Shown: one piece after another, positions 9,394 through 52,477 of the stretch
Layout: each line of letters opens with the position of its first letter
Numbering within the stretch: position 1 is the stretch's first letter
Assembly (NCBI GenBank): GCA_016214545.1
Contig: JACROH010000003.1
Span: 3,342-67,341 of the forward strand
Direction of reading: 5' to 3'
Length of the DNA: 64,000 nt
Origin: Candidatus Lloydbacteria bacterium
GTDB lineage: Bacteria; Patescibacteriota; Minisyncoccia; Phycocordibacterales; 21-14-all-47-15
Notes under the pieces: model-generated
Database searches by the model: none
What the model was told of the DNA's origin: nothing
Seen by the model: the letters and a program-made list of their open reading frames with translations, nothing else
Made by a program: the position numbers and the translations under genes

Positions 9394-9422
9394 ACCGATA
9401 ACCGAGATAATACGGCGATTAT

Positions 9423-10829: not shown

Positions 10830-10898
10830 CCCCATTAGCGGTTTCTTTACACAAGAACCCCCGCACCGGAATCGGCGCGGGGGTATATGCTTATTTTC

Positions 10899-12098: not shown

Positions 12099-12206
12099 GG
12101 TGGCCTCCTTATGTTTAAAGACAAAAAACATCTCGTACGCTTCTATCTCAGAGCTATAGGAAAAGAGCGGGAATGTCAATAACACAAGCTCCAATCATAA
12201 CCTAAT

Positions 12207-12247
12207 CAAAAAACCGCCTGGACATTGGGCGTCCAAGCGGTTTTTTT
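12207..12247 (-). terminator. Terminator after fusA
   Basis: CCGCCTGGAC/GTCCAAGCGG stem (one G.U pair), flanked by A-run and T-run. Confidence 0.75.
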
Positions 12248-12264
12248 CTAACTAGCCAGCTTGA

Positions 12265-21161: not shown

Positions 21162-21302
21162 GACAATCGCCCCCTTTTGAATGAATATTATTTATTGATA
21201 TCAAAGATTAACCTTGTTTTATGAAATCACATTTTTCAAAAAAAGTCAAGGTTTTCTGGGGCCCCGCCGCTTCCTGCGCACGGCGTTCACTTTGTTCACT
21301 TG

Positions 21303-21374
21303 TGCGCAGGAGAGGATTTGAATCTTACAGATTCAGTACAGGTTGTTGATATTTCATTTCATAAATTCATGAAA
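21303..21374. repeat. 72-bp perfect direct repeat, copy 1
   Basis: Identical to 21459..21530 (tgcgcaggagaggatttgaatcttacagattcagtacaggttgttgatatttcatttcataaattcatgaaa). Confidence 0.95.
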
Positions 21375-21438
21375 TATCTAACAACCTTTTCAAATCCTTG
21401 CTCCCGTTTGCCTGTGCAAACGGATGCGCCTCCTGCGC
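21303..21438 (-). other. tRNA-like unit 2: acceptor-like ends closing a hairpin-rich 136-nt imperfect palindrome
   Basis: The minus strand starts GCGCAGG and ends TTCAAATCCTCTCCTGCGCA. The interior has CCGTTTGC/GCAAACGG (8 bp), AGGATTTGAA/TTCAAATCCT, and GGTTGTTAGATATTTCAT/ATGAAATATCAACAACC. There is no D arm or anticodon arm. Confidence 0.6.
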
Positions 21439-21458
21439 ATATTACGCTTCGCTACATA

Positions 21459-21530
21459 TGCGCAGGAGAGGATTTGAATCTTACAGATTCAGTACAGGTT
21501 GTTGATATTTCATTTCATAAATTCATGAAA
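21459..21530. repeat. 72-bp perfect direct repeat, copy 2 (forms the 3' part of the tRNA-Leu-like gene)
   Basis: Identical to 21303..21374; period is 156 bp. Confidence 0.95.
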
Positions 21531-21577
21531 GCGCTACCACCTCAAGGTAGTGCGTCTACCAATTTCGCCACCTGCGC
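21459..21577 (-). tRNA. Aberrant tRNA-Leu(GAG)-like gene: canonical 5' half, non-canonical 3' half (119 nt)
   Basis: The 5' 47 nt GCGCAGG TG GCG AAATTGGTAGA CGC A CTACC TTGAGGT GGTAG is a textbook type-II tRNA up to position 43. The 3' end TTCAAAT CCTCT CCTGCGC A supplies the T-loop, 3' T-stem, 3' acceptor strand and discriminator. The 50 nt in between contain no sequence able to pair with CCTCT (there is no GG at all). Confidence 0.5.
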
Positions 21578-21654
21578 AAAACGTTTTTAGTATAGGCTAT
21601 ATTATGGGGAGCGTCAAAAAAATCGCCTTTCTCGGGCGATTTTTTAATGCGTTA

Positions 21655-29400: not shown

Positions 29401-29922
29401 TTTGTCAAAAAGCGTCTTGAACGCCCACCAGATTGATTCCGTGTACTGCCAATCCATCGTGCGGTAGCTTTTTTCCATGTCCACCCATCGCCCCATGCGC
29501 GGCACCACCTCTTTCCAATCCGTGTCATACCGAAGCACGCTCGCTTTCGCCGCCTCGTTAAATTTCCCCACGCCGAGCGCCTCTATCTCTTTTTTATTTT
29601 TCAAACCGAGCTCTTCTTCAATCAGGTTTTCAATCGGCAGACCGTGACAATCCCAGCCCCACTGACGGCGCACATATTTTCCTTTCATTGTCTGATATCG
29701 AGGAATGACATCTTTAATGGTGCCCGCGAGCAGGTGCCCGTAGTGCGGGAGACCCGTGGCAAACGGCGGTCCGTCGTAAAAAACGAAACGCTCCCCGCCT
29801 TTGTTTTTTTCAAGCGATTTTTGAAAAATATTCCGATCACACCAAAAACGGAGGGTTTTCATTTCCTTTTCGGCGACCTTTGATATTTCTTGTTTTTGCT
29901 CCGGTTCTTTTTTCATGCTCAA
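26413..29922 (-). CDS. ileS: Isoleucyl-tRNA synthetase (type 2) carrying an inserted histidine-phosphatase domain
   Basis: PHYGHLLAG (HIGH), GWDCHGLP, WTTTPWTLPGN (editing domain) and KMSKRLKN. Residues ~500-700 contain ILIRHGEAEHN, TSPFVRAKETA and LIVTHEY. Confidence 0.95.
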   Translation of the reverse strand: MSMKKEPEQKQEISKVAEKEMKTLRFWCDRNIFQKSLEKNKGGERFVFYDGPPFATGLPHYGHLLAGTIKDVIPRYQTMKGKYVRRQWGWDCHGLPIENLIEEELGLKNKKEIEALGVGKFNEAAKASVLRYDTDWKEVVPRMGRWVDMEKSYRTMDWQYTESIWWAFKTLFDKGLVYEGFKSMHICPRCETTLAISEVTQGYKDITDISVYVKFELVDEPDTYLLAWTTTPWTLPGNVALAVNTEILYVLIAVGKEKYILAKNRLETVKEEYQILKEFKGDALIGKSYKPLFDYYSKDEKLPNRENGWKVYGADFVTTESGTGIVHIAPAFGEDDMELGKKYNLPFVQHVGMDGRFKDEVKDFAGALVKPKQNPQEADIAMIKNLAARGLLFAKEKITHPYPHCWRCDTPLLNYAASSWFVGVAKFKDKLIEANKKIHFVPEHIRGGRFGKWLEGARDWAISRSRYWGAPIPVWKCEKCKSSRVIGSLADVMGGKKPRNEYILIRHGEAEHNKENVLSGNPATPHHLTEKGKGEVKAAAEKLKDKKIDFIFTSPFVRAKETADILAETLGLSGADIIEDNRLRELVTGDLDGKPVSVYHSYFSSPEEKFYKPTPHGETLLDMKRRVMEFISETDAAYDGKTILIVTHEYPAWMLVAGARGADVKEAVAMKEKAGEDFIETGGAMELSFVPFPHNANFELDLHRPYIDEMVFDCQCGGVARRVPEVFDCWFESGSMPYAQFHYLGDDTTEEGRLFRANFPADFIAEGLDQTRGWFYNMLVLSMGIFGETAYRSVIVNGLILAEDGQKMSKRLKNYPDPADIINAYGADALRYYLLSSPVVHGETLFFSEKGVDEIYKKIILRLENVLSFYELYQEGPSALGGKDESPNVLDQWILSRVNELGRQVEEALDAYELDRAIKPIGDFVDDLSTWYIRRSRDRFKEEGEDREYARKTTREALLLFAKIIAPFMPFIAEDVYQRMGGEKESVHLEEWTKHETRNMKHETSLLEAMAEVRRIVSLALDERMKSKIKVRQPLASLNIKDKDSKIKNDTGLLLLIKDEVNVKEIVFGGSIENEVSLDTNITPALKQEGQAREFMRSVQDIRKKIGLTPSDIIALTVAVDEEGRAVIEAFAKEIQKTVRASSIVFAKEISGESFLIDGISFNVLAEKK

Positions 29923-35247: not shown

Positions 35248-35378
35248 TCAAAAGGTCCATCGATGTTTCTTATTTCACATCGATCCCTTACAGGGACTGT
35301 ACACCTTTTGGATATATTGCTTCGTAAACTCGCAATCTATCTCAAAAGGTCCATCGATGTTTCTTATTTCACATCGAT
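35248..35378 (-). repeat. Element copy E (partial) bracketed by a 37-bp direct repeat that includes the rplK stop codon
   Basis: 35248..35284 is identical to 35342..35378 (tcaaaaggtccatcgatgtttcttatttcacatcgat). On the minus strand the interior reads GACCTTTTGAGATAGATT...AATATATCCAAAAGGTGTACAGTCCCTGTAAGGGA, matching the H3+H4 part of copies A and B. Confidence 0.8.
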
Positions 35379-35783
35379 GCCCATGCTCCGTGCGGTGCCT
35401 TCAATAATTTTTGAAGCCGCTTCAATGTCGTGGGCATTAAGGTCGGGCATTTTCTTTTCGGCTATTTCACGAATTTGCGCCTTGGTCACGCTTCCCACTT
35501 TATTCACCGCGTTTTTGCCTGAGCCTTTTTCTTTTCCTGCCGCCTTGAGAAGCAAGCTTGACGCCGGCGGAGTTTTTAAAACAAAACTAAAACTGCGGTC
35601 CTCAAAAACGCTGATTTCAACCGGAATAATATCGCCTCTCATTTGCGCGGTTGCGTCGTTAAACCGTTTGACGAACTCGCCGATGTTAACACCCGCTTGT
35701 CCAAGCGCCGGCCCAACCGGAGGCGCCGGAGTCGCTGCTCCGCCGGAAATCTGTAATTTAAGTTTTTTTGTTACTTTTGCCAT
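35364..35783 (-). CDS. rplK: 50S ribosomal protein uL11
   Basis: [26 protein letters not shown] motif. Confidence 0.97.
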
Positions 35784-35793
35784 ATAATAATTG

Positions 35794-36342
35794 TTACATT
35801 TTTTTCACCTGTAAAAAATCCAGCTCAACCGGCGTACTGCGTCCGAACATAGATACCAACACTTTAACTTTTCCACGCAGCTCGTCAACCTCGCTCACCT
35901 TTCCCTCGAGCTCTTTAAACGGCCCGTCGACAACCGTGACCAAATCGCCTTCCATGAGATCAATCTTATGCGTTGCTTTTTTATCGCCCTCCAAACGAGA
36001 GAACAGCTCTCCAATTTCTTTCTCATCAAGCGGCACCGGGTGCACCCCCGCGCCGACGAATCCGGTCACTCGTGGCGTATTTCGTACCACGTACCACGAA
36101 TCATCGGTTACAATCATGTCCACAAGCACATACCCCGGATACACTTTTTCTTCTATCTCTGTTCGTTTCCCTCCTTTGATTTTAATTTTCTTTTCCGTCG
36201 GCACAAGCACATTGAAGATTTTGTCTTCCATGCCGAGCGACTCAATGCGCGCTTTCAAATTGCGGGCTACGGCATTTTCGTATCCCGAATAGGTGTGAAT
36301 GGCATACCAATGCCGCTCGCGCTGTGATTCTTGTTTGGTCAT
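35794..36342 (-). CDS. nusG: Transcription antitermination factor NusG
   Basis: [14 protein letters not shown] plus a C-terminal KOW ([18 protein letters not shown]). I use the ATG at 36342; the track uses the TTG at 36357. Confidence 0.93.
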
Positions 36343-36349
36343 GAGATGA

Positions 36350-36526
36350 TTAAACAATTAACTGGAGCAGACGCTCAAAGATAAAGTCAAAAAAACCAAG
36401 AAACATCGCCGTAGCAAACGAGAGTATGACAACCAAAACCGTAAAAGCAATGGTCTGACGCTGGGTAGGCCAGCTTACATGTTTCATCTCGCCCTTAGTC
36501 TCTTTGAAATAATTGAGGATTTCCAT
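36350..36526 (-). CDS. secE: Preprotein translocase subunit SecE (58 aa; absent from ORF track)
   Basis: Hand translation: [58 protein letters not shown]. Has the classic KEVxKVxWP-type motif plus one TM helix, directly upstream of nusG. Confidence 0.85.
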
Positions 36527-41643: not shown

Positions 41644-41846
41644 TATTTCGTCTGAGCTGAAAGCGAAATGAGAATCGCAATTCTCATTTCGTCCGTGAGG
41701 GGCGAATACATGGAGCCCCGCAAGACCTTTTGAGATAGATTTGAGCTGAAGCGAAAATATATCCAAAAGGTGTACTGCTCCTGTTACGGAGCAAAGACCA
41801 AACATAGGTTCAATATCTCGCAGCTTGCTGCGAGGAACCTTTATTA
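41644..41846 (+). repeat. Structured intergenic element, copy A (full length)
   Basis: Runs from TTATTTCGTCT to GGAACCTTTATT with five hairpins (H1-H5). See findings for the copy-to-copy compensatory changes. Confidence 0.85.
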
Positions 41847-42430: not shown

Positions 42431-43135
42431 TTATTTCCCAGGCACAAGCTCTTTGATAAGTGCGCGCGCTTCTTCCGCAGAATCAACCAGATGATAAATA
42501 TCCATATCTTCTTTGTCGATTGATTTATCGCGTTCATACACATCCTTTTTAATCCAGTCAAATAGCGGCGTCCAGTACATTTTTCCGACGGCAATTACCG
42601 GAATCGGCTTAATTTTTTTAGTCTGGACAAGCGTTACTATTTCAAAAAATTCGTCGAGGGTACCAAACCCGCCCGGAAAAAAGATGTACACTTCGGAAGC
42701 AAACGAGAGAATCACTTTTCTGGTGAAGAAGTAATGGAAAGAAAGCGTGTCGTTGACGTAGGTGTTGAGAATCTGACCGCCGGGCAATTCAATGTTTAAC
42801 CCCGCCGATTTTCCTCCCGCCTCAAACGCTCCTTTGTTTGCCGCCTCCATGATCCCCGGGCCGCCGCCGGTGATAATGTCAAAACCGTCCGCAACCAACA
42901 TGCCGGCAAGCCGCGTCGCTTCTTTATAGATGGCGTCGTCAAGCGCGCATTTTGATGACCCGAAAAAAGTGGCCGTTTTCCCGTACTTGCGCAAAAACTC
43001 AAATCCGGAAACAAATTCGGACATAATCTTAAAAATACGCCACGTCGCCGCGTCTTCGGAATGAATATCGAGCAGCTCATCAACGCGCGCCTTTGGCAGA
43101 CAAACCTCCCCGTCTTGTTTTTTGTGAATATCCAT
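42431..43135 (-). CDS. LOG family protein (TIGR00730-type; cytokinin riboside 5'-monophosphate phosphoribohydrolase-like)
   Basis: GGGPGIMEAANKGA and PGGFGTLDEFFE motifs. Confidence 0.88.
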   Translation of the reverse strand: MDIHKKQDGEVCLPKARVDELLDIHSEDAATWRIFKIMSEFVSGFEFLRKYGKTATFFGSSKCALDDAIYKEATRLAGMLVADGFDIITGGGPGIMEAANKGAFEAGGKSAGLNIELPGGQILNTYVNDTLSFHYFFTRKVILSFASEVYIFFPGGFGTLDEFFEIVTLVQTKKIKPIPVIAVGKMYWTPLFDWIKKDVYERDKSIDKEDMDIYHLVDSAEEARALIKELVPGK

Positions 43136-43169: not shown

Positions 43170-43364
43170 AAAGGTTCCTCGCAGCAAGCTGCGAGGAACC
43201 TGTGTTTCGTCTTCGCTCCTTACAGGAGCAGTCCACTCATTGGGTCTTTTGTTTCGCTTCGCTCACAAAAGTCCTCAATGAGTCTTGCGGTGCTCCATGT
43301 ATTCGCACCTCACGGACGAAATGAGAGTTGCGATTCTCATTTCGCTCCTCGCTAGACGAAATAA
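43170..43364 (-). repeat. Structured intergenic element, copy C (full length, inverted relative to A and B)
   Basis: The reverse complement aligns with A end to end. H2 and H3 carry different but still complementary stems. Confidence 0.85.
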
Positions 43365-43382: not shown

Positions 43383-44006
43383 TTATGACTCGCGCCAAAA
43401 TGTATGCTTCATTCGTTTATACCCGACAAACAGAGCGCCGATACCTACGGCTCCCGCAACAAGCTGATAGTGAGGAGGCAGAGTAGCCGCATAAGAGAAA
43501 ATAAAAGCAAACGGAAGAATACCCAAAAGGGTTGAGGAGAAGTAGGTCAGAAAACGAATTTTTGTAAAAAGCCCCACCGCATAGCTCAGCACGTCAACCG
43601 GAAGCGCCATGCGCAAAAAAACAAGGCTCCAAAAAACATGCTGCTCGGGCAATGCTTTCTCAAATTGTTCCACTTTGTGCAAATCAACAAATCGATGAAC
43701 CACCGGTCTGCCAAAACACCTCGCCAGAAAAAAGGCGACGACCGCCCCCACCGTCCACCCCAGAACGCTTAAAAGCGCCGCGGCCAAACTCCCCCATAAA
43801 CCGACGGCAACCGGCAGCAACGGAAGCGTGCTCACCGGCGCAATAACAACCGCAACAATGGTAATCGCCACATACACAATCATCCCCTCCATGCCCAACG
43901 CAAAGGGAATGTTTACAAAAAAATCCGCATATTCCTGCACCGCCGCCGAAGCCCCGATAAACAAGGCGATTACCAGAACGGCAATGCCTATTTCTTTTAA
44001 CGACAT
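43383..44006 (-). CDS. TVP38/TMEM64 (DedA-related) membrane protein
   Basis: Multi-TM protein with FFLARCFGRPVVHRF, typical of the family. Confidence 0.6.
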   Translation of the reverse strand: MSLKEIGIAVLVIALFIGASAAVQEYADFFVNIPFALGMEGMIVYVAITIVAVVIAPVSTLPLLPVAVGLWGSLAAALLSVLGWTVGAVVAFFLARCFGRPVVHRFVDLHKVEQFEKALPEQHVFWSLVFLRMALPVDVLSYAVGLFTKIRFLTYFSSTLLGILPFAFIFSYAATLPPHYQLVAGAVGIGALFVGYKRMKHTFWRES

Positions 44007-44092: not shown

Positions 44093-44794
44093 TTAATTTT
44101 TGAGCGCTTGGTCTATGGCGTTTTTTATCTGTTCAAACGGCAATGCGCCGCTAAACGGAAAAACATCGCCCTTTGAGGTCAAAATGACCGAGTACGGGGT
44201 CCCATTCCCGCCGGAAGCGATGGCGTCCGCGAGATTATCGGAAACGCGGCTTGCAAACTTGCCGCTATCGAGACAGTTTTGAAACGCTTTTACATCAAGC
44301 CCGATATTTTTTGCAATCACCGGCAGCTGATTCAAATCAAGACCGTTGTTTGACGGCGTAACAGCAAAAATACCGTCGGCATAGCTCCAGAACGCGGCGT
44401 TGCCACCCTGGTCTGCGGCACATTCAGACGCTTCGGCTTCTTTTCGCGCCTTCGAGTGAAGGCCATCGAGCGGAAAATGCCGATACACCCAGGCAACGCG
44501 CCCGTCTTTCCCGTACGTGTCCACGACTTGTTTCATCGTCTCGTGAAATACTTTACAAAACGGACATTCGAAATCGGAAAATTCCACAATCGTCACTTGA
44601 GCATTCGGGCTTCCCAAAATATGGTCTTTATCGCTGAGCGGCCTCACCTTTTCTGCAGCGGCTGACGGAACGTTATTCAGCGCTTCTTTTTTTACGTCAT
44701 TATTCCGTGAGCTCATAACCGCTCCGGCAATAATAAGACCGGCGATAATGATTGCTCCCGGAATCAGGTACGATGTTTGTTTTGATTCTTGCAT
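44093..44794 (-). CDS. DsbA-family thiol:disulfide oxidoreductase, membrane-anchored
   Basis: Start at the ATG at 44794 (MQESKQTSYLIPGAIIIAGLIIAG); the track ORF extends to 44998. CPFC active site (FSDFECPFCKVFHE). Confidence 0.8.
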   Translation of the reverse strand: MQESKQTSYLIPGAIIIAGLIIAGAVMSSRNNDVKKEALNNVPSAAAEKVRPLSDKDHILGSPNAQVTIVEFSDFECPFCKVFHETMKQVVDTYGKDGRVAWVYRHFPLDGLHSKARKEAEASECAADQGGNAAFWSYADGIFAVTPSNNGLDLNQLPVIAKNIGLDVKAFQNCLDSGKFASRVSDNLADAIASGGNGTPYSVILTSKGDVFPFSGALPFEQIKNAIDQALKN

Positions 44795-44918
44795 ATGAGT
44801 GATATTATACACCGGCCATTTCATAAAACAAGAAATGCTTGACGAACTATCGCCACGTGTTACCATCCAACAAACAAATCCGTTCGTTGTCATTACCAAT
44901 ACCTTGAAGGAGTGGCCC

Positions 44919-46076
44919 ATGCTCAAGCTTTTTATTGAAAAGAAAGAGATCCAAGATTCAGTACTGCCGATTCGATGGAACATCGACCAAGAAACCACTG
45001 AAAAAATACTTGAGTCGGAAATAGGCGAACCTCTTCTTTTTTTGGTAGCCGTAGGAAAAGATAGGGTAGAACACCGCGAGGTGGTGCCTCTAAAGCAAAT
45101 GATGCACTACCTTCAGCTAAGGACCTCCGGTGAAATTAAAATTTTCGCCGGAATAATCTACTCACAAAACAAATCTCAGTGGGAGCTTAAAAAAATCTTC
45201 CTTGAAAGAAGCAACCACTGTTCCTACCGGACCGAAGTTTTTGAAGAAACAACGGATTCTTTGAAATTAGGGAGGGTCTTCTATAGCATAAATCATGGCT
45301 ATGCGTATTTATTCCGCGAAACTTCCGCGGCCGAAATCAGCATACATGTCCCAAAAGAGGCTTTTGCAAAAGAGCCGCCGAAATGGGAACAAAAATGGGT
45401 CAATTGGTTTTACGAAACAAAGCCCGTTGACCAATGCCAGTATCGCAGACGGCGAATTATCGCCTATACGGTTCAGCCCTTTATTATTAGTGTTTGTTTC
45501 ATTTTAAAGATGGTCCTTAATAGTGCCCTGGTATGTTTTAACGGAGTGATTTGCGGCAGACGAGACACCGAGTGGCGATCGATTATTAGACCTTTCTTGT
45601 ATGCCCCAGACGACAACGGATACGATTCTTCGTCGGTGTACTTCACGAAAAAAGGCGGCAAGACGCAATTCTTACCCTTGTTCCTTTTCAATCCGGCGAC
45701 AATAGTATTTGGGGTGATAATCATGTGGGTGGTTCTATACAAACAATACGACGCAGCGTTTTCGTTTTGGCCGACCTTCGCGTATACCATAATCGCGATA
45801 GGTTCTTTTTCGGTTATTGGAATTACTCTCTATTCCGCGGCAGATTTCCTTGCGTCAGGGAAACTCACAGGGAAACTCAAGAAATACGCCTACTTCAAGA
45901 ATCTGTTTGAAACCGCCAGAGAAGAAAGACGGGCTTATCTTAAAAATGCCTACGCCGTCTTGTCGTCTGAAGTCCCCGAAACGGTTAGCCTGGACACGCT
46001 TCCGAAAGAAAAGCAGACTATTTACTTGAGATTTTTGGATCTCAAGGCAAAGGTTTGCCGTCCTTTTGCAGATTAG
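44919..46076 (+). CDS. Hypothetical membrane protein (soluble N-terminal domain + about 4 TM)
   Basis: ATG at 44919 is preceded by GAAGGAG; the track starts at the GTG at 44799. No family recognised. Confidence 0.5.
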   Translation: MLKLFIEKKEIQDSVLPIRWNIDQETTEKILESEIGEPLLFLVAVGKDRVEHREVVPLKQMMHYLQLRTSGEIKIFAGIIYSQNKSQWELKKIFLERSNHCSYRTEVFEETTDSLKLGRVFYSINHGYAYLFRETSAAEISIHVPKEAFAKEPPKWEQKWVNWFYETKPVDQCQYRRRRIIAYTVQPFIISVCFILKMVLNSALVCFNGVICGRRDTEWRSIIRPFLYAPDDNGYDSSSVYFTKKGGKTQFLPLFLFNPATIVFGVIIMWVVLYKQYDAAFSFWPTFAYTIIAIGSFSVIGITLYSAADFLASGKLTGKLKKYAYFKNLFETAREERRAYLKNAYAVLSSEVPETVSLDTLPKEKQTIYLRFLDLKAKVCRPFAD

Positions 46077-46140: not shown

Positions 46141-46345
46141 TTATTTCGTCTGAGCTGAGAGCAAAATAAGAATGGCAATTCTTATTTTGTCCGTGAGGGG
46201 CGAATACTTGGAGCCCCGCAAGACCTTTTGAGATAGATTTGAGCTGAAAGCGAAAATATATCCAAAAGGTGTACTGCTCCTGTAAGGAGCGAAGACCAAA
46301 CATAGGTTCAATTCCTCGGGGCTTTGCCCCGAGGAACCTTTATTT
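46141..46345 (+). repeat. Structured intergenic element, copy B (full length); its 3' end touches the rplE stop codon
   Basis: Same order of segments as copy A. H1 and H5 stems differ by paired substitutions. Confidence 0.85.
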
Positions 46346-46879
46346 CTTAAACGGCACGCCCAGGTGTTCAAGAAAGGCGACCGCTTCATCTTTATTTTTT
46401 GCCGTTGTGACAACCGTAATCGCAAGACCAAACACGTCTTTCAAATCTTCGTCGGCCGTCTCGGGGAAAATCGTATGTTCTTTCAATCCGAGCGTTACGT
46501 TTCCGATGGCGTCGATTGCCGACTTACTGAATCCGCGGAAGTCGCGCATGCGGGGCACCGCAATATTAAAAAGCTTATCGAGAAATGCGTACATTCGTGC
46601 GCCACGGAGCGTTACGACATATCCGACAGGATCTCCCTCTCGGAGCTTAAACGTTGCAATCGATTTCTTTGCGCCGCGCAACGCCGGTTTTTGTCCGGTA
46701 ATTTTTGCCAACCGACTCGCGACTACTTCATTTCGCTGCTTTTTGTCTTTGGCAGAGCCAGTCCCCGCGCTCACCGCAACCTTAATCACGCGCGGAGCTT
46801 GCATAGTATTGGTGTACCCAAATTTAGCTTGGAGCGCCTTGAAAGCGGTTTTTTCGTTTTGTTTTGTTGAAATCATCAT
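46340..46879 (-). CDS. rplE: 50S ribosomal protein uL5
   Basis: Typical uL5 sequence; synteny after rplX. Confidence 0.95.
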   Translation of the reverse strand: MMISTKQNEKTAFKALQAKFGYTNTMQAPRVIKVAVSAGTGSAKDKKQRNEVVASRLAKITGQKPALRGAKKSIATFKLREGDPVGYVVTLRGARMYAFLDKLFNIAVPRMRDFRGFSKSAIDAIGNVTLGLKEHTIFPETADEDLKDVFGLAITVVTTAKNKDEAVAFLEHLGVPFKK

Positions 46880-46897
46880 ATACGTATCTTAAAAAGA

Positions 46898-47203
46898 TTA
46901 TATTGCGTTGCCGCTTTTTGCGCTTACGCGCACTTTTTTATTTCCGTCGGTCTTCATGCGCACGCGTGACGGCTTGCCGCTTTTCGAATCAACCAACATT
47001 ACGTTTGAAACGTGCATCGGCGCCGGATATTCCACGATCTGCCCCTTTTGTCCGCCGCGTCGCGCTCGCTGGTGTCTCTTTTTTATATTAACGCCCTCAA
47101 CAACCACCCGTCCTTCTTTCGGAAACGCTTTCAGGATTTTTCCTTTTTTTCCTTTGTCTTTGCCGGTAATTACGGCAACCGTATCATTTTTTTTGATATG
47201 CAT
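46898..47203 (-). CDS. rplX: 50S ribosomal protein uL24
   Basis: MHIKKNDTVAVITGKDKGKKGKI (KOW motif). Confidence 0.95.
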   Translation of the reverse strand: MHIKKNDTVAVITGKDKGKKGKILKAFPKEGRVVVEGVNIKKRHQRARRGGQKGQIVEYPAPMHVSNVMLVDSKSGKPSRVRMKTDGNKKVRVSAKSGNAI

Positions 47204-47214
47204 GGCAGTGATAA

Positions 47215-47586
47215 TTAAACGACTTCCGGCGCAAGCGATATTACTTTCTGATATCCGGCATCCGCAAGCTCTCGGGGTATCGGCCCGAAGACACGCCCGC
47301 CCCGCGGTTCTTTTTTATCGGGATCGACAATAACTACCGCATTTTCATCAAATCGAATGTATGAACCGTCTTTCCTGCGAAACGGTTTCCTCTGACGAAC
47401 CACCACCGCTTTCAAGACATCTTTTTTCTTCACCTGTTTGCGCGGCTCGGCAACCTGCACCGACAACACGACAATCTCTCCGATTTCCGCATAACGTTTT
47501 TTAGAACCGCCAAGCACCTTGAAAATGCGCCCGATTTTACCGCCGGTGTTGTCTGCAATTTTTACTATGGATCGTGGTTGAATCAT
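47215..47586 (-). CDS. rplN: 50S ribosomal protein uL14
   Basis: MIQPRSIVKIADNTGGK; 123 aa. Confidence 0.97.
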   Translation of the reverse strand: MIQPRSIVKIADNTGGKIGRIFKVLGGSKKRYAEIGEIVVLSVQVAEPRKQVKKKDVLKAVVVRQRKPFRRKDGSYIRFDENAVVIVDPDKKEPRGGRVFGPIPRELADAGYQKVISLAPEVV

Positions 47587-47603
47587 GATAGCTATTTAAA
47601 AAT

Positions 47604-47876
47604 TTATCCGGTGACGACTTTAAAATGTTTATCTTTTGAAAGCGGGCGGGTTTCTTCTATTTCCACCATGTCCCCCACTTTATAGGTGTTTGCTTCGTCG
47701 TGCGCTTTGTATTTTTTGCTCTGTTTGACGCGCTTTTTATACTTTGGATGCTCAACGAAACGATTCACCAAAACAACAATCGTTTTGTCCATTTTATCGG
47801 ACACGACGACGCCGCGGAGCCTTTTACCTGTCGGCCGGAGAGATGCGTCTGTTTTTTTTGTTGCTTTGGTATTCAT
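47604..47876 (-). CDS. rpsQ: 30S ribosomal protein uS17
   Basis: [14 protein letters not shown]...[18 protein letters not shown]. Confidence 0.95.
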
Positions 47877-47883
47877 ATGAAAA

Positions 47884-48090
47884 TTATTTAGCTTCGTTTT
47901 TACGGATGTTCAGTTCGGTTAGAATACGGGCGACGACTTTGCGGCGATTCGCCGATTCTTTTACGTTTTTTGTCTTGCTGCCGGCGGCACCAAACCGAAA
48001 TTGTCGCAGCGCTTCCCGATTGTCGGCAAGCTCTTTCTTCAAATCGGCATCGGTCTTTTTTTTAATATCTTTTTGTTTCATGTTTGCCAT
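47884..48090 (-). CDS. rpmC: 50S ribosomal protein uL29
   Basis: Length 68 aa, a LRQFRFGAA-type helix pattern, and synteny. Confidence 0.88.
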
Positions 48091-48096
48091 ACCGAA

Positions 48097-48516
48097 TTAC
48101 CGCGTTATTACTTTGGACTTGAGCGGAAGTTTTGACCCGGCCTTCCGAAGCGCTTCGTGCGCAACTTCTTCGCCGATTCCGTCGACTTCAAAAATTACCC
48201 GCCCGGGCTTTATCTCGACGGAATATCCCTGCAAATCCCCTTTGCCTTTTCCCATGGGAGTTTCCGCACCTTTCGCCGTATACGGGCGGTCCGGAAAAAT
48301 GCGGATCCACATCTTCCCCGTCTTGCCCATGGTGCGAGAAATCACCTTTCGCGCCGCTTCAATCTGGTTTGACCTGACACGGGCGGGAGACGTGGCCTTC
48401 AGCCCGAAAGAGCCGAAAGAAATTTTTGTTCCCCTCGTGTCGGGGTGCGCAAGTTTCAGCGGATTCCTCCGTCCGGTCTGCCATTTTCTAAATTTTACTT
48501 TTTTTGGAAACAGCAT
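48097..48516 (-). CDS. rplP: 50S ribosomal protein uL16
   Basis: MLFPKKVKFRKWQTGR... Confidence 0.96.
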   Translation of the reverse strand: MLFPKKVKFRKWQTGRRNPLKLAHPDTRGTKISFGSFGLKATSPARVRSNQIEAARKVISRTMGKTGKMWIRIFPDRPYTAKGAETPMGKGKGDLQGYSVEIKPGRVIFEVDGIGEEVAHEALRKAGSKLPLKSKVITR

Positions 48517-48521
48517 GTTAA

Positions 48522-49202
48522 TTACATTCTTACCGGCGCATCTTTTTCGACCTGGAAGACCTCCCCTTTATAAATCCATACTTTAATGCCGATATCGCCG
48601 TAAGGCATGTGCGCCTTCTCGCGTGCAAAATCGATATCCGCACGAAACGTCTGAAGCGGAATGGTCCCGCGCTTGATGCTTTCTCGTCGTCCCATATCAG
48701 CGCCTCCCAATCGCCCCGAAAGCGCAATCTTTGCCCCCTTCACGTTTCGGTTTGCCATCACCTTTTCAATCATTTGTTTTAAAATCCGTCGAAAAGTCAG
48801 GCGCTTCTCCAGCCCTTCCGCGACCATCTGAGCGACGAGCGCCGCATCAGCTTCCGGCTGCTTCACCTCTTCGATGTCGACTTTTATATCTTCCGGAACC
48901 GCAAGCGAGCGCTTTTTAAAGAAAGCGACGATTTCTTCTTTGAGTTTGACCGAGCCTTCACCGCCGCGGCCGATGATAACGCCCGCCCGTCCTGTTTTTA
49001 TGATAATTCGAAACGTATTGCGGTTTCGTTCAATTTCAATACCGGAAACAAGATTGCCGCGCAATCGCTTTTCGAGATATTCGCGAACAAGCACGTCTTC
49101 TTTCAGTGTTTTTGCATATCCCTTGCCAACGCCAAACCAGCGAGATTTCCAATCTCTTAAAATAACGAGGCGATGAGCATATGGATGGACGACGTGGGAC
49201 AT
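48522..49202 (-). CDS. rpsC: 30S ribosomal protein uS3
   Basis: KH-domain region (FRIIIKTGRAGVIIGRGG); synteny. Confidence 0.96.
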   Translation of the reverse strand: MSHVVHPYAHRLVILRDWKSRWFGVGKGYAKTLKEDVLVREYLEKRLRGNLVSGIEIERNRNTFRIIIKTGRAGVIIGRGGEGSVKLKEEIVAFFKKRSLAVPEDIKVDIEEVKQPEADAALVAQMVAEGLEKRLTFRRILKQMIEKVMANRNVKGAKIALSGRLGGADMGRRESIKRGTIPLQTFRADIDFAREKAHMPYGDIGIKVWIYKGEVFQVEKDAPVRM

Positions 49203-49232
49203 GATAAAAAATTTAGAATATAAAAAGTAACA

Positions 49233-49586
49233 TTATTTTTTTGTTTTCTTGTTGTGCTCTTTCTCTCCCAAAATAAGAGTAACGTGGCTTGAGCGTTTGT
49301 TGATAGGCGTCGCGCGACCCATAGCCCGCGGCATACTTCGCTTAAGTGTTACCCCTTTGTTAACCTGAATCTCTTTCACAAACAACGACTGCAACTCTTT
49401 CCCTTCGCCGTTTTGTTTTGCGTTGGCAATCGCCGATTCAAGCAACTTCTTGAGCGGCGCCGTCGCACGCTTCGGGAGAGCCGAAAGAGCCACCAGAGCT
49501 TCGGGGACCAGCTTGCCGCGTATCGCACTGGCGACTAAGCGCACTTTACGAGGAGATTGTCTGTAATTTTTGAGAAAGGCACGCAT
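49233..49586 (-). CDS. rplV: 50S ribosomal protein uL22
   Basis: YRQSPRKVRLVASAIRG... Confidence 0.95.
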   Translation of the reverse strand: MRAFLKNYRQSPRKVRLVASAIRGKLVPEALVALSALPKRATAPLKKLLESAIANAKQNGEGKELQSLFVKEIQVNKGVTLKRSMPRAMGRATPINKRSSHVTLILGEKEHNKKTKK

Positions 49587-49619
49587 AAATAAATGTTTTT
49601 AACGAGACCGGGTGGTTCT

Positions 49620-49970
49620 TTATTTCTTTTTTGTTGTATCGACAGTAGTCGCTTTTGCGGCCTGAGCGGCGGCAATTTCGGCTTCTTTCTTTTTCTGTTC
49701 GATTTCTTTTTGCATCTTTCCGCCGTGTCGAACAAATTTCTTTGTCGGAGAAAATTCCCCCAAGCGATGCCCGACCATTTCTTCTGAAACCAGCACTTCG
49801 ATGTGGTCTTTGCCGTTGTATACGCCAAAGGTAAACCCGACCATTTCGGGAGAAATTTGACCTCCGCGCGCCCACGTCTTAACAACCCCGGCTTGCTCCG
49901 GTTTCTTTCCCTGAATTTTTTTCAGGAGTTTTTCGTCCACATAGGGACCTTTTTTGAGCGAACGTGTCAT
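49620..49970 (-). CDS. rpsS: 30S ribosomal protein uS19 with K/E/A-rich C-terminal extension
   Basis: Start at the ATG at 49970 ([19 protein letters not shown]); the track ORF extends to 50036. About 25 extra C-terminal residues. Confidence 0.93.
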
Positions 49971-50007
49971 ACGACAAATGAAAACGCCCACACAAGGGCT
50001 GCCCCAT

Positions 50008-50036
50008 ATACTAAACAAAAGCGTATTTATTGTCAA
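50008..50036 (-). promoter_or_regulatory. Sigma70-type promoter for the rpsS..rplE unit (TTGACA-17-TAGTAT)
   Basis: RC of 50031..50036 is TTGACA; RC of 50008..50013 is TAGTAT; the spacer is 17 nt. It lies just downstream of a terminator. Confidence 0.6.
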
Positions 50037-50087
50037 TAAAAGAAGCCTATGTTTTTATAGACCCCAGCCCACCCCAGAGAACCGGAA

Positions 50088-50130
50088 CTAAAAATCCCGT
50101 ATTCGTTATTATCTAAAACGAATACGGGAT
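50088..50130 (-). terminator. Terminator after the MBL-fold gene
   Basis: 14-bp stem ATCCCGTATTCGTT/AACGAATACGGGAT followed on the minus strand by TTTTTAG. Confidence 0.8.
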
Positions 50131-50144
50131 TAAATCACTCGCGC

Positions 50145-51179
50145 TTATTCATACACACAAGGCATCGGCATTGCGAAACCGGCAAAGCCATCGTCAAGAA
50201 CGCGCCGGTCACCCCCGAGCATGCCGTCATCGTCAACGGGCCTCATGCCGTCATCGCAATGGTAGAGATATATTTTTTTCTTTATTTCATCGGGGAGGCC
50301 GCGCAAATCGCCATAATACGCGTGGACCCCGCCCGAAAACGATTGGCAGTCGTGAAAAATCGTTTCGCATTTATCACCAATTCTCATAAAAACTTCCGGG
50401 TCAAACTGTGTGTCTCCGGAAATCATGACGCGCCCGTCGACAATCAACCCACACGAGAAAAAATTTTCTTCGAGGGTGCGTGTCATGTCGGGAATATGTT
50501 TGGTGCGATACAAAAGAAAGTGTATGGCGCTTTCTCTTTCTCCAATCGTGCACTCCCAAACGTCGCGACCGTACTTCTCGTTAAAAATTTTATGCGGCGG
50601 TGTCAGCCTGAAAAAATGGTCAATCCCCATGGGCTGTGTCGGGCCTCCGTTTGTCATGCTCTCAGAGTACCCCATACCTCCCACGAGACTCTTCTCCCAA
50701 AGAGCTTTGGCATACTCATACGGCACATGCAGATACGGAAGCATTTCTTTTCCGGCCTTGATTTCATTGATGCGTTCGAGAAACGCCGGCGTTCCGGGTG
50801 TGTATCCCTCCATGGCCTTTTTCACCGGCGCTTCATATCGCGCCTTGAGTCCGCATTCTTCAAGCGAGCCGATGTGGTCGGCATGGCTATGGGTCACGAT
50901 AATATGTTTGATGTCGTTTACCGATAACCCAAATTCGCGCATTCGGAAGGTTGCCTTCGTCCCCAGATCAACAAAAACCGACGTCTTCCCTTTGGTGACG
51001 ATCAGATTACTCTGAAACTGGTTGTTTGAAAACGCCGAGCCGCAACCAAGAAAACTGATTCGCAACTTATCCGGGTCACTTTGCAGAGGGAACGGGAGTT
51101 CCCATTTCCACTTCCCCATTTTTAGACGATGACCAACGGGAAAATATTTGCCCAAATCCACTGTAATTTCTTTAAGCAT
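50145..51179 (-). CDS. MBL-fold metallo-hydrolase
   Basis: HSHADHIG (HxHxDH) motif. Confidence 0.75.
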   Translation of the reverse strand: MLKEITVDLGKYFPVGHRLKMGKWKWELPFPLQSDPDKLRISFLGCGSAFSNNQFQSNLIVTKGKTSVFVDLGTKATFRMREFGLSVNDIKHIIVTHSHADHIGSLEECGLKARYEAPVKKAMEGYTPGTPAFLERINEIKAGKEMLPYLHVPYEYAKALWEKSLVGGMGYSESMTNGGPTQPMGIDHFFRLTPPHKIFNEKYGRDVWECTIGERESAIHFLLYRTKHIPDMTRTLEENFFSCGLIVDGRVMISGDTQFDPEVFMRIGDKCETIFHDCQSFSGGVHAYYGDLRGLPDEIKKKIYLYHCDDGMRPVDDDGMLGGDRRVLDDGFAGFAMPMPCVYE

Positions 51180-51400: not shown

Positions 51401-51476
51401 GCGCGCTTAGCTCAGTTGGTAGAGCAACCCGTTTACACCGGGAAGGTCGGGGGTTCAAGTCCCTCAGCGCGCACCA
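51401..51476 (+). tRNA. tRNA-Val (anticodon TAC), CCA encoded
   Basis: GCGCGCT TA GCTC AGTTGGTA GAGC A ACCCG TTTACAC CGGGA AGGTC GGGGG TTCAAGT CCCTC AGCGCGC A CCA. Confidence 0.9.
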
Positions 51477-51610
51477 AAAATGAGCGCGCGAGAAAAATTT
51501 TCGTCAGAAAATTTATTCGTGACCAAGTCTAAAAAAGCGCGCACAAACGAACGAAGTGAGTGCCGTGCGCGCTGAGGCGCAGCTTTTCTTGCAAGAAAAG
51601 CGTCGCGCGG

Positions 51611-51680
51611 AGTCCGCCCGAGGCGGACGTGAGAAGCGAATACATGGAGCTTCGCAAGACTCATTGAGGATTTTTGTGAG
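51611..51680 (+). repeat. Structured intergenic element, copy D (5' part only: H1, H2, 5' strand of H3), cut off at the island boundary
   Basis: GTCCGCC cga GGCGGAC GTGAG AAGC GAATACATGGA GCTT CGCAAGACTCATTGAGGATTTTTGTGAG aligns with copy C, then similarity stops at 51680. Confidence 0.75.
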
Positions 51681-51682
51681 GA

Positions 51683-52477
51683 TTAGGAATTAATTTTTTC
51701 TTCTTTTTTCCACAATACCTCAAATATACTTTTAAACATTGCTACAATATATTCGTCCTCAATAAGAACTAGGAGCGGTGCTTTTGGTTGCCATATAATA
51801 ACTTTGTTCGCATAAAGCATAAATCCAGTTACGAATCGAATAGAACCTTTGAATATTTTGGTTGTTCTCATTCCTTCGGCGTCTGTCTCCTGCAGAGTAT
51901 CGGCGTCTTCACCGGAAGTAAGGAGACAGTCTATATGAATACCTTTTTCTTTTCTCTTTTTTATCCATTCATTCTCTGTGTTCCATCCGATAAGTCCAAT
52001 AAAATCGTCAGCTGAACCTAAGTATTTGATGCTTTCTTTTGCTTCATCAAGAATTTGAAAAAATATTTTCATCCACTGCTCACGACTATCATAAACTCGT
52101 ATCTTGGTCGGGGTTTCACCTTGATGATAATTAGCAAGAAGTTCTGGCATTGCCACAACAAGTGTTTGATCAAGATTTGCCATTGTTTCTCTTTTGTCCT
52201 GCAAAAGTTCTAATATCAAAGTCGGTGGCTCTACCACAAATATTCTTGCATAACGTTTTTTCTCCGAAAACTTCGCTAGCCTGTGTTTTTCTAAGCCCGA
52301 AATAGCTTTGTAGACATTAGGACGAGAGGTATTAAGATGCTCGGCTAATATTGCAATACTTGTGGGACCGAGAGTAAGAGATGTTAGATAAAGATTCGCC
52401 TCAGACTCTAAAAGGCCTAATTCCTTTAGGGCAGTGTGTAGACTTTTCTTTATTTCTGTTTCTTGATTTGTAGCCAT
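51683..52477 (-). CDS. TrmB-family transcriptional regulator
   Basis: N-terminal winged HTH (LGLLESEANLYLTSLTLGPTSIAILAEHLNTSRPNVYKAISGLEKHRLA) plus a C-terminal effector-like domain. The DNA is AT-rich. Confidence 0.6.
   Translation of the reverse strand: MATNQETEIKKSLHTALKELGLLESEANLYLTSLTLGPTSIAILAEHLNTSRPNVYKAISGLEKHRLAKFSEKKRYARIFVVEPPTLILELLQDKRETMANLDQTLVVAMPELLANYHQGETPTKIRVYDSREQWMKIFFQILDEAKESIKYLGSADDFIGLIGWNTENEWIKKRKEKGIHIDCLLTSGEDADTLQETDAEGMRTTKIFKGSIRFVTGFMLYANKVIIWQPKAPLLVLIEDEYIVAMFKSIFEVLWKKEEKINS

Follow-up and report, generated by a model that had tools for sequence, protein, structure and literature searches.

What is the ~200-nt intergenic element that recurs in this genome with its stems changing from copy to copy? 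The initial annotation of the 64-kb window (the whole stretch of DNA analysed) described five loci, A to E, of one family, and all five are present where it placed them, with every stem and loop that it quoted reading as given (Table 1). A repeat search of the window recovers the family as direct and inverted repeats, and global identity between the full ~200-nt copies is 90.3% (A–B), 80.1% (A–C) and 76.9% (B–C). When a covariance model (CM) built on the core was applied to the window with filters off, it detected the five loci again and added two partial copies between 21.3 and 21.6 kb. Within the window, no copy lies inside a gene.

Table 1. Positions in the window of the element copies, their parts and adjoining features. 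Blank cells indicate that no value is given.
Feature	Position	Strand	Remarks
Two extra partial copies	21298..21580	-	CM; absent from the initial annotation
Extra partial copy	21320-21397	-	CM 36.8 bits
Extra partial copy	21476-21560	-	CM 22.7 bits
Copy E	35248..35381	-	CM 35283-35381, 54.1 bits
Copy E, duplication	35248-35287, duplicating 35342-35381		37-40 nt
Copy A, full composite	41644..41846	+	CM core 41693-41792, 83.9 bits
Copy A, P1	41645-41653 with 41795-41803	+	
Copy A, H1	41664-41691	+	
Copy A, GUGAG	41695-41699	+	
Copy A, H2	41700-41718	+	
Copy A, CGCAAG	41719-41724	+	
Copy A, H3	41725-41771	+	
Copy A, GUAC	41772-41775	+	
Copy A, H4	41777-41792	+	
Copy A, outer stem AGGUUC/GAACCU	41806-41811 with 41835-41840	+	
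Copy A, H5	41817-41834	+	terminator-like
Copy A, intrinsic-terminator pattern	41816-41835		scan
LOG-family gene	42431-43135		same strand as copy C
Copy C, full composite	43170..43364	-	CM core 43215-43315, 89.7 bits
Copy C, intrinsic-terminator pattern	43201-43172		scan
DedA/VTT gene	43383-44006		same strand as copy C
Gene with terminator hairpin before copy B	44799-46076	+	
Copy B, full composite	46141..46345	+	CM core 46191-46290, 93.9 bits
Copy B, intrinsic-terminator pattern	46312-46336		scan
rplE	46340-46879	-	stop codon overlaps end of copy B
tRNA-Val	51401-51476		ARAGORN
Fragment directly 3' of tRNA-Val	51486..51544	+	read against relatives' M4 modules
M4-type hairpin	51486-51523		starts the fragment
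Copy D, 3'-truncated	51565..51680	+	CM 51627-51695, 41.5 bits
Copy D, inverted tRNA-Val 3' end	51565-51577		complementary to 51462-51474
Copy D, H1'	51612-51628		

Conservation beyond the source genome is limited to the central ~90-100 nt (GUGAG-H2-CGCAAG-H3-GUAC-H4). H2, H3 and H4 alone are common across the phylum; H1, P1 and H5 are lineage- or copy-specific, so the ~200-nt unit does not hold up as the conserved entity that the initial annotation took it for. The core is a three-hairpin junction, GUGAG-H2-CGCAAG-H3-G(U/G/A)AC-H4, of about 80-120 nt, closed by a fourth, copy-specific stem (P1) or by a neighbouring hairpin. The fold predicted for the copies consists of P1, H1-H4 and an outer AGGUUC/GAACCU stem that encloses H5. 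Copy A folds with z = -6.1 relative to shuffles, and its complement equally well (z = -6.5).

Selection on the folded stems, which had been proposed from the window's copies, is borne out in 76 distinct copies. Pairing was found in 92.4% of cells compared to 76.9% in shuffles, both sides change in 14 of the 20 pairs, and 215 compensatory cells were observed where about 50 were expected. No shuffle out of 500 matched the covariation values, and slid controls were 34-45% paired. Unpaired bases of the junction and loops are near-invariant, while the helices covary almost wholly from one Watson-Crick pair to another. One example had been misread: the H3 difference between A and C is not a stepwise compensation that took place within this genome. 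The two forms, ACCUUUUG/CAAAAGGU and ACUCAUUG/CAAUGAGU (the latter carried by copy C), are both widespread in other genomes and reassorted relative to the H1/H5 versions; they are two old versions of H3.

The strand on which the element was originally drawn is also the better-folding one. It is the more stable strand in 70 of the 76 cores, and it is marked by tandem G.A pairs in H3 and, in relatives, by G.U pairs that are conserved in the M4 hairpin. Counts of G.U versus A.C in H2 and H4 gave no strand decision. The M4 G.U pairs and the energy asymmetry modestly favour this strand. The two termini of A, B and C, UUAUUUCGUCU.. and ..GGAACCUUUAUU, do not form inverted repeats; UUAUU, an AT-rich motif seen in these three copies only, borders each of them on both sides.

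The initial annotation could not place the element in an RNA class, and Rfam 15 has no match for it either. No copy in the window or in 18 loci reaches a gathering threshold, and permissive searching (E<=1-10) added no match on any copy, including E<=1 over 35-52 kb of the window. The full composite from one relative (L009) gave chance sRNA matches only, with E>1. A guide or omega RNA of TnpB, IscB or IS110 and a retron RNA were considered and rejected, with no such protein adjacent to a copy in the window or recurrent in the 120 listed loci. A phage origin was likewise rejected, as the pattern is missing from the viral contig collection searched.

The family extends far beyond this genome. 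Among the matches listed, a 30-nt pattern picks out at least 120 loci; they are spread over about 95 assemblies, almost all of Patescibacteria, and several of these assemblies have 3-5 loci each. Altogether, 150+ copies were collected. The covariance model found no match in 824 kb of unrelated control loci. A metagenome scan for the LOG-family protein (80 loci) returned a best identity of only ~60%, with no usable synteny and no element. Most copies are intergenic; 40 share the strand of the upstream gene and 24 run opposite to it. Clusters are seen in five loci (L082, L084, L052, L081, L058), with additional copies no more than a few hundred nt from the first one. Type-1 cores are nested within type-2 units, one genome has near-identical copies at contig ends, and duplications at copies vary from 0 to 86 nt (examples are 21, 37 and 86 nt). 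Turnover is visible at orthologous sites: the RNR orthologues of L026 and L059, 87% identical, differ by presence of the core with both frames open, and L094 carries a copy at a site whose orthologue in L013 has none.

On balance, we favour reading these loci as copies of a Patescibacteria-wide, non-autonomous, structure-dependent family of interspersed repeats. The family behaves like a selfish structured repeat and not like a single-function sRNA gene. It is probably mobile, judging from copy number, nesting, truncation, target duplications, both orientations and turnover at orthologous sites. Mobility is read from this pattern because more direct marks are missing: the comparisons recovered no clean empty site that would show exact element ends, terminal inverted repeats shared by the whole family and a target duplication of fixed length were not seen across copies, and no candidate enzyme was identified. 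Flanking inverted repeats in other genomes are unique to each copy, and TRF found no tandem array. No transposase adjoins the copies, and neither a transposase nor any other recurrent protein family is linked to the 120 listed loci. No Y1 transposase was found among the genes of the window and of 8-kb pieces of relatives. Closing stems vary from copy to copy; simple cut-and-paste or copy-and-paste of a fixed element leaves this unexplained, which weighs against a repeat.

Under the repeat reading, we infer that the core would serve as the module recognised by a factor whose gene lies elsewhere in the genome. This factor, which could be a nuclease, recombinase or polymerase, would read the first-described strand, folded either as RNA or as single-stranded DNA. 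New copies would insert at or beside hairpins, especially tRNA 3' ends, in a process that would also copy the adjacent target in direct and inverted orientation and, as proposed here, thereby supply the closing stem. A, B and C would then be a younger sub-family that has spread as a ~200-nt unit with its own P1, H1 and terminator-like H5. Copies at operon ends and at breaks in ribosomal-protein order may serve incidentally as transcript-end hairpins and recombination sites.

The core is strongly associated with tRNA genes and with 5S rRNA. Within 300 nt of a tRNA gene lie 35 of 124 cores (28%), compared to roughly 3% expected. Of these tRNA-proximal copies, 30 (86%) are on the tRNA's strand and 21 of those are downstream of the tRNA. 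Closing stems beside tRNAs are built from inverted and direct copies of the neighbouring tRNA's 3' end, and their 5' arm is complementary to that tRNA's T-loop-to-3'-end segment, so two mutually exclusive pairings are possible. Copies are also located in partial 5S and tRNA duplicates. A position upstream of tRNA-Asn is occupied in three lineages and a position after rplK in two. Away from tRNAs, a general rule of target copy, inverted copy, modules and target copy fails: the upstream target copy was seen in 4 of 33 copies compared to 2-3 in controls. Phylum-wide conservation of junction and loops, together with the 86% orientation bias, is equally predicted by a cellular RNA function, which speaks against a repeat.

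These features raise the possibility, which we regard as unlikely, that the core is a functional, tRNA-linked structured RNA domain: a protein-binding or catalytic module co-transcribed after tRNA, 5S and ribosomal-protein genes. Its framing stems would be copied from the tRNA acceptor and T arm, it would be released by tRNA-processing enzymes or would compete with the tRNA for folding, and its repeat-like copies would form a multigene family. The near-invariant unpaired bases between covarying helices, the better-folding + strand, the strand bias beside tRNAs, the two exclusive pairings and the shared positions before tRNA-Asn and after rplK all fit such a domain. However, copies occur in both orientations relative to the upstream gene, copy A runs antisense to the genes on both sides, and some copies within genes are translated in either orientation. 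Many copies are truncated, copy number differs among genomes, and A, B and C have no promoter-like site in front. We can suggest only tentatively that the core represents a new, Patescibacteria-specific class of tRNA-associated RNA elements that takes its closing stem from a neighbouring tRNA 3' end or a local hairpin and spreads or acts via tRNA-handling machinery. If so, it would be either the bacterial equivalent of tRNA-derived SINEs or a functional RNA, widely distributed, that modulates tRNA maturation.

Copy D extends further upstream than first read and runs from an inverted copy of the tRNA-Val 3' end through a hairpin, H1' and GUGAG-H2-CGCAAG to the 5' strand of H3 only. The fragment directly 3' of tRNA-Val starts with an M4-type hairpin, GCGCGAG..UUCGUGAC, and continues with CAAGUC..AGCGCGCAC, in which the T-loop-to-3'-end segment of tRNA-Val is repeated directly but in decayed form. 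In copy E, the hairpin AUCGAUGU-GAAAUAAGAA-ACAUCGAU, which contains the rplK stop codon, takes the place of H2; H3 and H4 follow, and then a direct duplicate of the hairpin and the first H3 bases, so that the stop codon is included in the duplication. L032 has a copy at the same post-rplK position. The two extra partial copies have H3 AGGUUGUU/AACAACCU, GUAC and H4 GAAUC/GAUUC without H2. They are located within an 86-nt direct repeat, with sequences resembling the acceptor and T loop of tRNA-Leu(GAG) on either side; no tRNA is called there by ARAGORN or by Rfam.

Chimeras with tRNA and 5S fragments, and target duplications of 21-86 nt, would also be produced by a tRNA-derived, retroposon-like element, a bacterial SINE analogue descended from a class II tRNA (Leu). 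H2 would be the D arm, H3 an expanded anticodon arm and H4 the variable arm, and spread would occur via an RNA intermediate with template switching onto abundant tRNA and 5S. Weak similarity to tRNA-Leu is seen between H2 GCGAAUACUUGGAGC and the D arm GCGAAAUUGGUAGAC, and between ACC-UUGAG..GGUG and the anticodon arm of tRNA-Leu(GAG). Leu isoacceptors rank top in local alignment, with a best score matched by 1 of 200 shuffles, and the H4 loop CUGUAAG is shaped as an anticodon loop. Eukaryotic tRNA- and 5S-derived SINEs likewise combine a tRNA and 5S association with a conserved central domain and target duplications of variable length. However, we consider this descent improbable. The Rfam tRNA model (RF00005) is silent on all copies, including at E<=1. 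The four tRNAs that ARAGORN reports in the window are all ordinary; none lies over a copy, and permitting introns adds none there. The window contains neither a reverse transcriptase nor a LINE-like partner, and neither recurs among the 120 listed loci; Patescibacteria are reported to lack group II introns (PMC13011429). The tRNA fragments in the chimeras derive from the neighbouring parent gene and are not dispersed, and a tRNA ancestry of the core is a weak lead.

Copies within tRNA-like and 5S-like sequences could also be small introns or intervening sequences removed from tRNA, 5S and mRNA transcripts. Group I introns are abundant in CPR genomes; those in Patescibacteria tRNAs sit at position 35/36, match Rfam Intron_gpI and are self-splicing (PMC13011429). 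The element resembles them in phylum, in a preference for tRNA genes including tRNA-Asn, in having no ORF and in being structured. In silico, excision at T loops, from the tRNA-Ile T loop to a duplicated 3' part, restores a tRNA in L076 and L092 only. However, an intact tRNA or 5S gene always adjoins the interrupted copy, and the other half of the interrupted tRNA copies is missing. Intron_gpI matches no copy, while the same model does detect a true intron in L023. Most copies lie outside genes or at other positions, and the loss of the H4-loop stop codon from in-frame copies (below) implies translation through the element. An intron is therefore very unlikely.

H5 alone has the G+C-rich hairpin and U run of an intrinsic terminator. 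As first described, the pattern is present in A, B and C; the call is no more than a consensus match, with weak U tails in A and B. Copy B lies between convergent genes, 3' of the terminator hairpin of the preceding gene, and its final bases overlap the rplE stop codon. Copy C is flanked by a DedA/VTT gene and a LOG-family gene, all on one strand; its H5 can be a terminator for the upstream gene, and a promoter-like site of its own follows 3' of the element. The discrete ~200-nt transcript once suggested for each copy finds no support apart from the terminator-like H5: no promoter-like site was detected directly upstream of A, B or C in a pattern scan, and A lies antisense to the genes around it. 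A cis-regulatory leader (riboswitch or attenuator) with H5 controlling the downstream gene would suit this terminator and an aptamer-like multi-helix junction with conserved loops, and it is already contradicted by gene context, since downstream genes are unrelated, orientations are mixed (A antisense, B convergent, C followed by its own promoter-like site) and H5 is missing from the family outside the source genome.

In-frame copies inside genes are rare, about 5 of 124 (about 4%), an observation that weighs against a repeat. Same-frame copies (GEKRILGASQ) are found in a class II RNR-like gene (L026), a ComEC-like gene (L074) and Tgt (L104), and antisense copies in two further ORFs (L025 and L101), with all frames open. 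All three sense copies have GGUACG in place of UGUAAG as the H4 loop, a change that removes the in-frame TAA. A peptide profile search for in-frame copies returned three short ORFs only. A protein-coding origin of the conservation was rejected because most copies have stop codons in sense frames; the window copies have TAG in the GEKRILGASQ frame. The initial statement that a protein-coding gene would not give this pattern holds with a reservation: some relatives are translated in frame within real genes.

For the repeat reading, the closest known kinds appear to be REP/BIME and the Rickettsia palindromic elements (RPEs). With REP/BIME sequences, it is the folded single strand that an enzyme recognises, its gene lying elsewhere in the genome, and the repeats affect transcript ends as a side effect. 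Like the present family, they are extragenic structured repeats at operon ends, in mosaic clusters and in both orientations, with Watson-Crick covariation. However, REPs are single imperfect palindromes of 20-40 nt, whereas the core has three to five helices over 80-120 nt with long conserved single-stranded motifs, and no RAYT/Y1 transposase is present in the window or the 120 listed loci. Bacterial MITEs (Correia/NEMIS, ERIC, RUP, Nezha) are also short, non-autonomous, structured and transcribed with their neighbours, and some form in-frame fusions (PMC10969869). Their terminal inverted repeats match a parent IS and their target duplication is fixed; here each copy has different inverted repeats, duplication length varies between 0 and 86 nt, and no transposase is among the window genes examined.

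RPEs occupy intergenic sites and also insert in frame into unrelated housekeeping genes, whose products thereby gain a peptide (PMC10969869). By kind only, and as drawn from descriptions, the likeness is close: each is a multi-copy structured repeat of ~100-150 nt from host-dependent bacteria with reduced genomes, without a transposase of its own and with an unexplained mode of spread. Here too, one repeat lies in frame in unrelated protein genes (RNR, ComEC and Tgt) and keeps the frame open. The proportion in frame is about 4% compared to nearly half of RPEs, the fold is a multi-helix junction with invariant loops instead of one long palindrome, tRNA and 5S linkage is strong with locally templated closing stems, and the range is phylum-wide instead of genus-wide. 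Since the hosts here are Patescibacteria, similarity in sequence would not be expected and we do not claim membership of the named families.

Patescibacteria hold a large share of bacterial diversity in tiny genomes and cannot yet be cultured alone. In genomes of this size, a multi-copy element of ~100-200 nt in about 95 assemblies (among the matches listed) is either unexpected ballast or performs a function that has gone unrecognised. Covariation strongly supports the family, and Rfam lacks it; a model there would improve annotation and prevent spurious ORF calls. Its locally templated closing stems beside tRNA genes point to an undescribed insertion or recombination mechanism or to new tRNA-linked RNA biology. 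The element also marks breaks in conserved gene order: copies B and D lie where the window's ribosomal-protein operon is interrupted. Peptides are added by it to essential enzymes; the Tgt that carries a copy has a ~67-aa insert compared to solved Tgt structures.

In the window, the repeat copies are found where operons end and where ribosomal-protein gene order is broken. Repeat detection placed full copies A, B and C in a single family, with global identities of 90.3% (A-B), 80.1% (A-C) and 76.9% (B-C), and re-reading confirmed their sequences, coordinates and strands as first annotated. A covariance model (R1) of the core, GUGAG-H2-CGCAAG-H3-GUAC-H4, recovered these copies and partial copies D and E, together with two partial copies that are new (H1 to H5 are the successive hairpins). 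Since A, B and C have the closing stem P1, H1 and H5 in common, they appear to have spread as a unit of ~200 nt. The H3 versions are reassorted relative to the H1/H5 versions, a sequence pattern that points to exchange between copies in the window.

Positions of repeat copies and other features (window coordinates, except loci L023, L110 and L117 of other genomes)
Feature	Position	Strand	Context
Copy A, full	41644-41846	+	Antisense to both neighbouring genes
Copy B, full	46141-46345	+	Between convergent genes, 3' of another terminator
Copy C, full	43170-43364	-	Between two same-strand genes
Copy D, partial	51611-51680		3' of tRNA-Val; H1-like hairpin, H2 and H3 5' strand only
Copy E, partial			3' of rplK; H3 and H4 only
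Extra partial copy	21320-21397	-	Found with R1
Extra partial copy	21476-21560	-	Found with R1
tRNA-Leu(GAG)-like sequence	21466-21580	-	Flanks of partial copies
Inverted tRNA-Val copy	51565-51577		Beside copy D; copied from 51462-51474
Ribosomal block 1	6641-14403		fusA..tuf..rplD..rplB
Ribosomal block 2	46340-51179		Flanked by copies D and B
Ribosomal block 3	35364-36357		nusG-rplK, then copy E
Pilin-like gene	2711-3202	+	Type IV secretion
Isoleucyl-tRNA-synthetase-like ORF	26413-29922	-	1169 aa
DsbA-like ORF	44093-44998	-	Start region overlapped by 425-aa ORF
425-aa ORF	44799-46076	+	Membrane-protein-like, without Pfam match
NYN-domain nuclease gene	62520-63044	-	
L117 repeat copy with tRNA-Phe gene	4012-4195	-	Complete tRNA-Phe gene within H3 loop
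L023 tRNA-Phe gene	5555-5860	-	230-nt group I intron
L110 23S rRNA gene	3361-6968	+	~3.6 kb
L110 tRNA-like match	4644-4721		Within 23S rRNA gene

The usual str-S10-spc order is split into three separate blocks, of which the first ends with rplB at 6.6 kb and the second extends between ~51.2 kb and rplE at 46.3 kb. The absence of rplA after rplK fits a Parcubacteria subgroup reported to lack uL1 (PMC9297842). The genes flanking the copies are ordinary (Cys/Met PLP enzyme, FMN reductase, LOG-family protein, DedA/VTT, DsbA-like protein, rplE and TrmB-like regulator), and 30 more window genes encode translation factors, aminoacyl-tRNA synthetases, ribosomal proteins, PNPase and similar products. 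No transposase, integrase or reverse transcriptase was found among these flanking and further genes. Also in the window are genes for an NYN-domain nuclease and a type IV secretion pilin-like protein, neither with an evident link to the repeats. Because the 425-aa ORF shares 200 nt with the start region of the DsbA-like ORF, the start codon assigned to one or other of them is probably incorrect. The isoleucyl-tRNA-synthetase-like ORF has its class I catalytic domain in two halves, with a His_Phos_1 (histidine-phosphatase) domain (residues 503-667) between them.

RNAalifold on A, B and C placed H1 to H4 within P1 (GUCU/AGAC, extendable), followed by an outer AGGUUC/GAACCU stem around H5, which matches the intrinsic-terminator pattern in all three copies. 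Folding of copy A compared to shuffles gave z = -6.1, and its complement gave z = -6.5; as the complement folds well too, single-copy folding energy cannot give the strand. We tested covariation with a 20-pair structure on an alignment of 76 distinct cores. Standard pairs occupied 92.4% of cells, compared to 76.9% in shuffles and 34-45% with partners slid. Fourteen of the 20 pairs changed on both sides, and the 215 compensatory cells (~50 expected) were reached in none of 500 shuffles, bearing out the proposal in the initial annotation of selection on a folded strand. The H2 stem, left unconstrained by the search pattern, occurs in 20 versions (12 fully Watson-Crick), and stem changes are nearly all from one Watson-Crick pair to another, with few G.U intermediates. 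Three weaker lines support the annotated strand as the one that probably folds: the commonest H3 version carries tandem G.A/A.G pairs, the M4 hairpin keeps its G.U pairs in 14 of 15 good instances (the complement would have A.C mismatches), and the plus strand is predicted to fold better in 70 of 76 cores (by a mean of 3.9 kcal/mol). Because the copies share ancestry, these clues are not independent tests.

The pattern GTGAGNNNNGAATACNTGGANNNNCGCAAG, in which the H2 stem is free, was run on a species-representative genome collection and matched at least 120 stretches, among ~95 assemblies in the matches listed. Nearly all listed hosts are Patescibacteria, chiefly Paceibacterota (Kaiser-, Zambryski-, Taylor-, Yonath-, Vogel- and Nomurabacteria), plus one Levyibacteriota MAG and MAGs that carry a Saccharibacteria label; in several genomes the pattern matched 3-5 loci. 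A single Pedobacter match lies inside a gene and is due to chance, and viral contigs gave no match to the pattern. R1 found 154 matches at E<=0.001 in the 120 listed loci, many of them second to fifth copies a few hundred nt from the first (L082, L084, L052, L081, L058), and none in 824 kb of unrelated loci.

The relatives have in common just the centre of the unit, (G)GUGAG-H2-CGCAAG-H3-G(U/G/A)AC-H4; the window's H1, P1 and H5 show no conservation among the matches listed. The data do not support the earlier suggestion that the copies are discrete 200-nt sRNA genes. A small number of old H3 versions exist: one with tandem G.A pairs (ACCUU-GAGC..GCGA-AAGGU), and ACCUUUUG..CAAAAGGU, ACUCAUUG..CAAUGAGU and AGGUUGUC..ACAACCU. 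As seen from R1 matches outside the search pattern, the H2 loop GAAUACNUGGA is limited to one sub-family, and in other copies the H2 that stands between these GUGAG and CGCAAG motifs differs in length and has a UGGGA-type loop. A type 2 architecture retains GUGAG-H2-CGCAAG; its H3 is short (ACCGGAGC..GCGAGGU), and another hairpin (M4, GGUCGCGR..YCGUGACC) comes last. Type 1 cores are often nested between type 2 H3 and M4, giving multi-helix composites of 220-300 nt with variable P1 closing.

Of 124 cores among the matches listed, 35 have a tRNA gene no more than 300 nt away, compared to ~3% expected from tRNA density, and these genes carry ~20 different anticodons. Thirty of the 35 are on the tRNA strand and 21 are downstream of the tRNA. 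In these copies the closing stem repeats a segment of the neighbouring tRNA (T-loop, T-stem and 3' side of the acceptor), inverted in the 5' arm and direct in the 3' arm (worked example L082). The inverted copy has three or fewer mismatches in 10 of 23 copies (at least six exact or near exact), and an 18-nt direct copy ending at the tRNA 3' end is present in 5 of 23. Away from tRNAs, closing stems are unique perfect inverted repeats of 9-20 bp. In the window, copy D is preceded by such an inverted tRNA-Val copy, and the partial copies at 21.3-21.6 kb have the same stem design on tRNA-Leu(GAG)-like flanks. Acceptor, D and anticodon arms are all good in that tRNA-like sequence; a segment of the repeat stands in for the 5' strand of its T-stem, and the sequence goes uncalled as a tRNA by both ARAGORN and Rfam. 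Truncated copies of the tRNA 5' half, with a type 2 unit at about position 26/27, lie 5' of tRNA-Asn in three lineages, and partial tRNA-Gly and tRNA-Phe copies have similar junctions after the anticodon stem. The element also occurs, in either orientation, at partial 5S copies beside the true 5S gene. Directly downstream of rplK, both copy E and L032 have a stop-codon-bearing hairpin in place of H2.

Some cores lie inside genes. A sense, in-frame core is read as GEKRILGASQ in class II RNR-like (L026), ComEC-like (L074) and Tgt (L104) genes; in L025 and L101 the core is read from the opposite strand. All three sense copies have GGUACG rather than UGUAAG in the H4 loop, which removes an in-frame TAA. 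Compared to solved structures, the Tgt has ~67 extra residues between FQVFSLG and LDEEGVTF. The orthologous RNR genes of L026 and L059 (87% nucleotide identity) are both open to the conserved C-terminal ..FICDSCQ, with an 84-nt core in the linker of L026 and other short modules in that of L059. An intergenic copy in L094 is missing from the L013 orthologue, and in one MAG three contigs end within near-identical copies, as expected of recent repeats. A metagenome scan gave relatives at no more than ~60% identity and no clean empty site, and no protein family recurs near copies in the 120 listed loci. Stop codons are unusually rare on the core complement (all three frames open in 50-57 of the 76 aligned cores); on the sense strand two frames out of the three share this, with 33 and 22 of the 76 cores open. 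As these frames owe much to shared conserved sequence, selection for tolerance within genes may be behind the scarcity or may play no part in it.

Most likely the family is an interspersed, non-autonomous repeat, and recognition, by selection or by a factor encoded elsewhere, would act on its folded core. This reading follows from the folded core with invariant single-stranded motifs, the many clustered, nested and truncated copies without a linked gene, occurrence in either orientation, in-frame survival with loss of the stop codon, target duplications, and gain or loss at orthologous sites. The nearest described kinds are REP/BIME elements and Rickettsia palindromic elements (PMC10969869), the latter because copies lie in frame within genes of a reduced genome. 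Unlike these, the present family forms a multi-helix junction, is closely tied to tRNA and 5S genes, and has closing stems that are copy-unique and, beside tRNAs, templated by the neighbouring gene. Such stems are unexplained by known cut-and-paste or copy-and-paste schemes.

A serious alternative is that the core is a functional tRNA-linked RNA domain, as suggested by its orientation bias relative to the tRNA, its invariant loops, and an inverted tRNA copy that could pair with the tRNA or its decoy. Descent from a tRNA, as in SINEs, is a weak lead: Leu isoacceptors head the similarity ranking, with a best score matched in 1 of 200 shuffles, but no tRNA model matches the copies. An intron is unlikely, given intact gene copies alongside, interrupted tRNA copies that lack their other half, and translated in-gene copies. 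Gene context contradicts a riboswitch or leader.

At the gathering threshold, Rfam 15 found only four tRNAs in the window. The window copies had no match at E<=1, and searches of 18 related loci and one full composite of another genome likewise assigned the element to no family, in agreement with the initial annotation, which could place it in no RNA class. Literature searches also found no description of the family. Structured interspersed repeats are a known kind, and as far as shown by Rfam 15 and the literature this family looks undescribed; that it is something more unusual than such a repeat seems improbable, if well short of negligible.

In L117, where a repeat copy has a complete tRNA-Phe gene in its H3 loop, a partial tRNA-Phe 5' half lies directly 5' of the copy's GUGAG. 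The L110 23S rRNA gene exceeds the 2.9-kb model, and its internal tRNA-like match is called tRNA-Glu by ARAGORN with introns allowed. The L023 tRNA-Phe intron lies at anticodon position 35, the unusual 35/36 site reported for Patescibacteria (PMC13011429).
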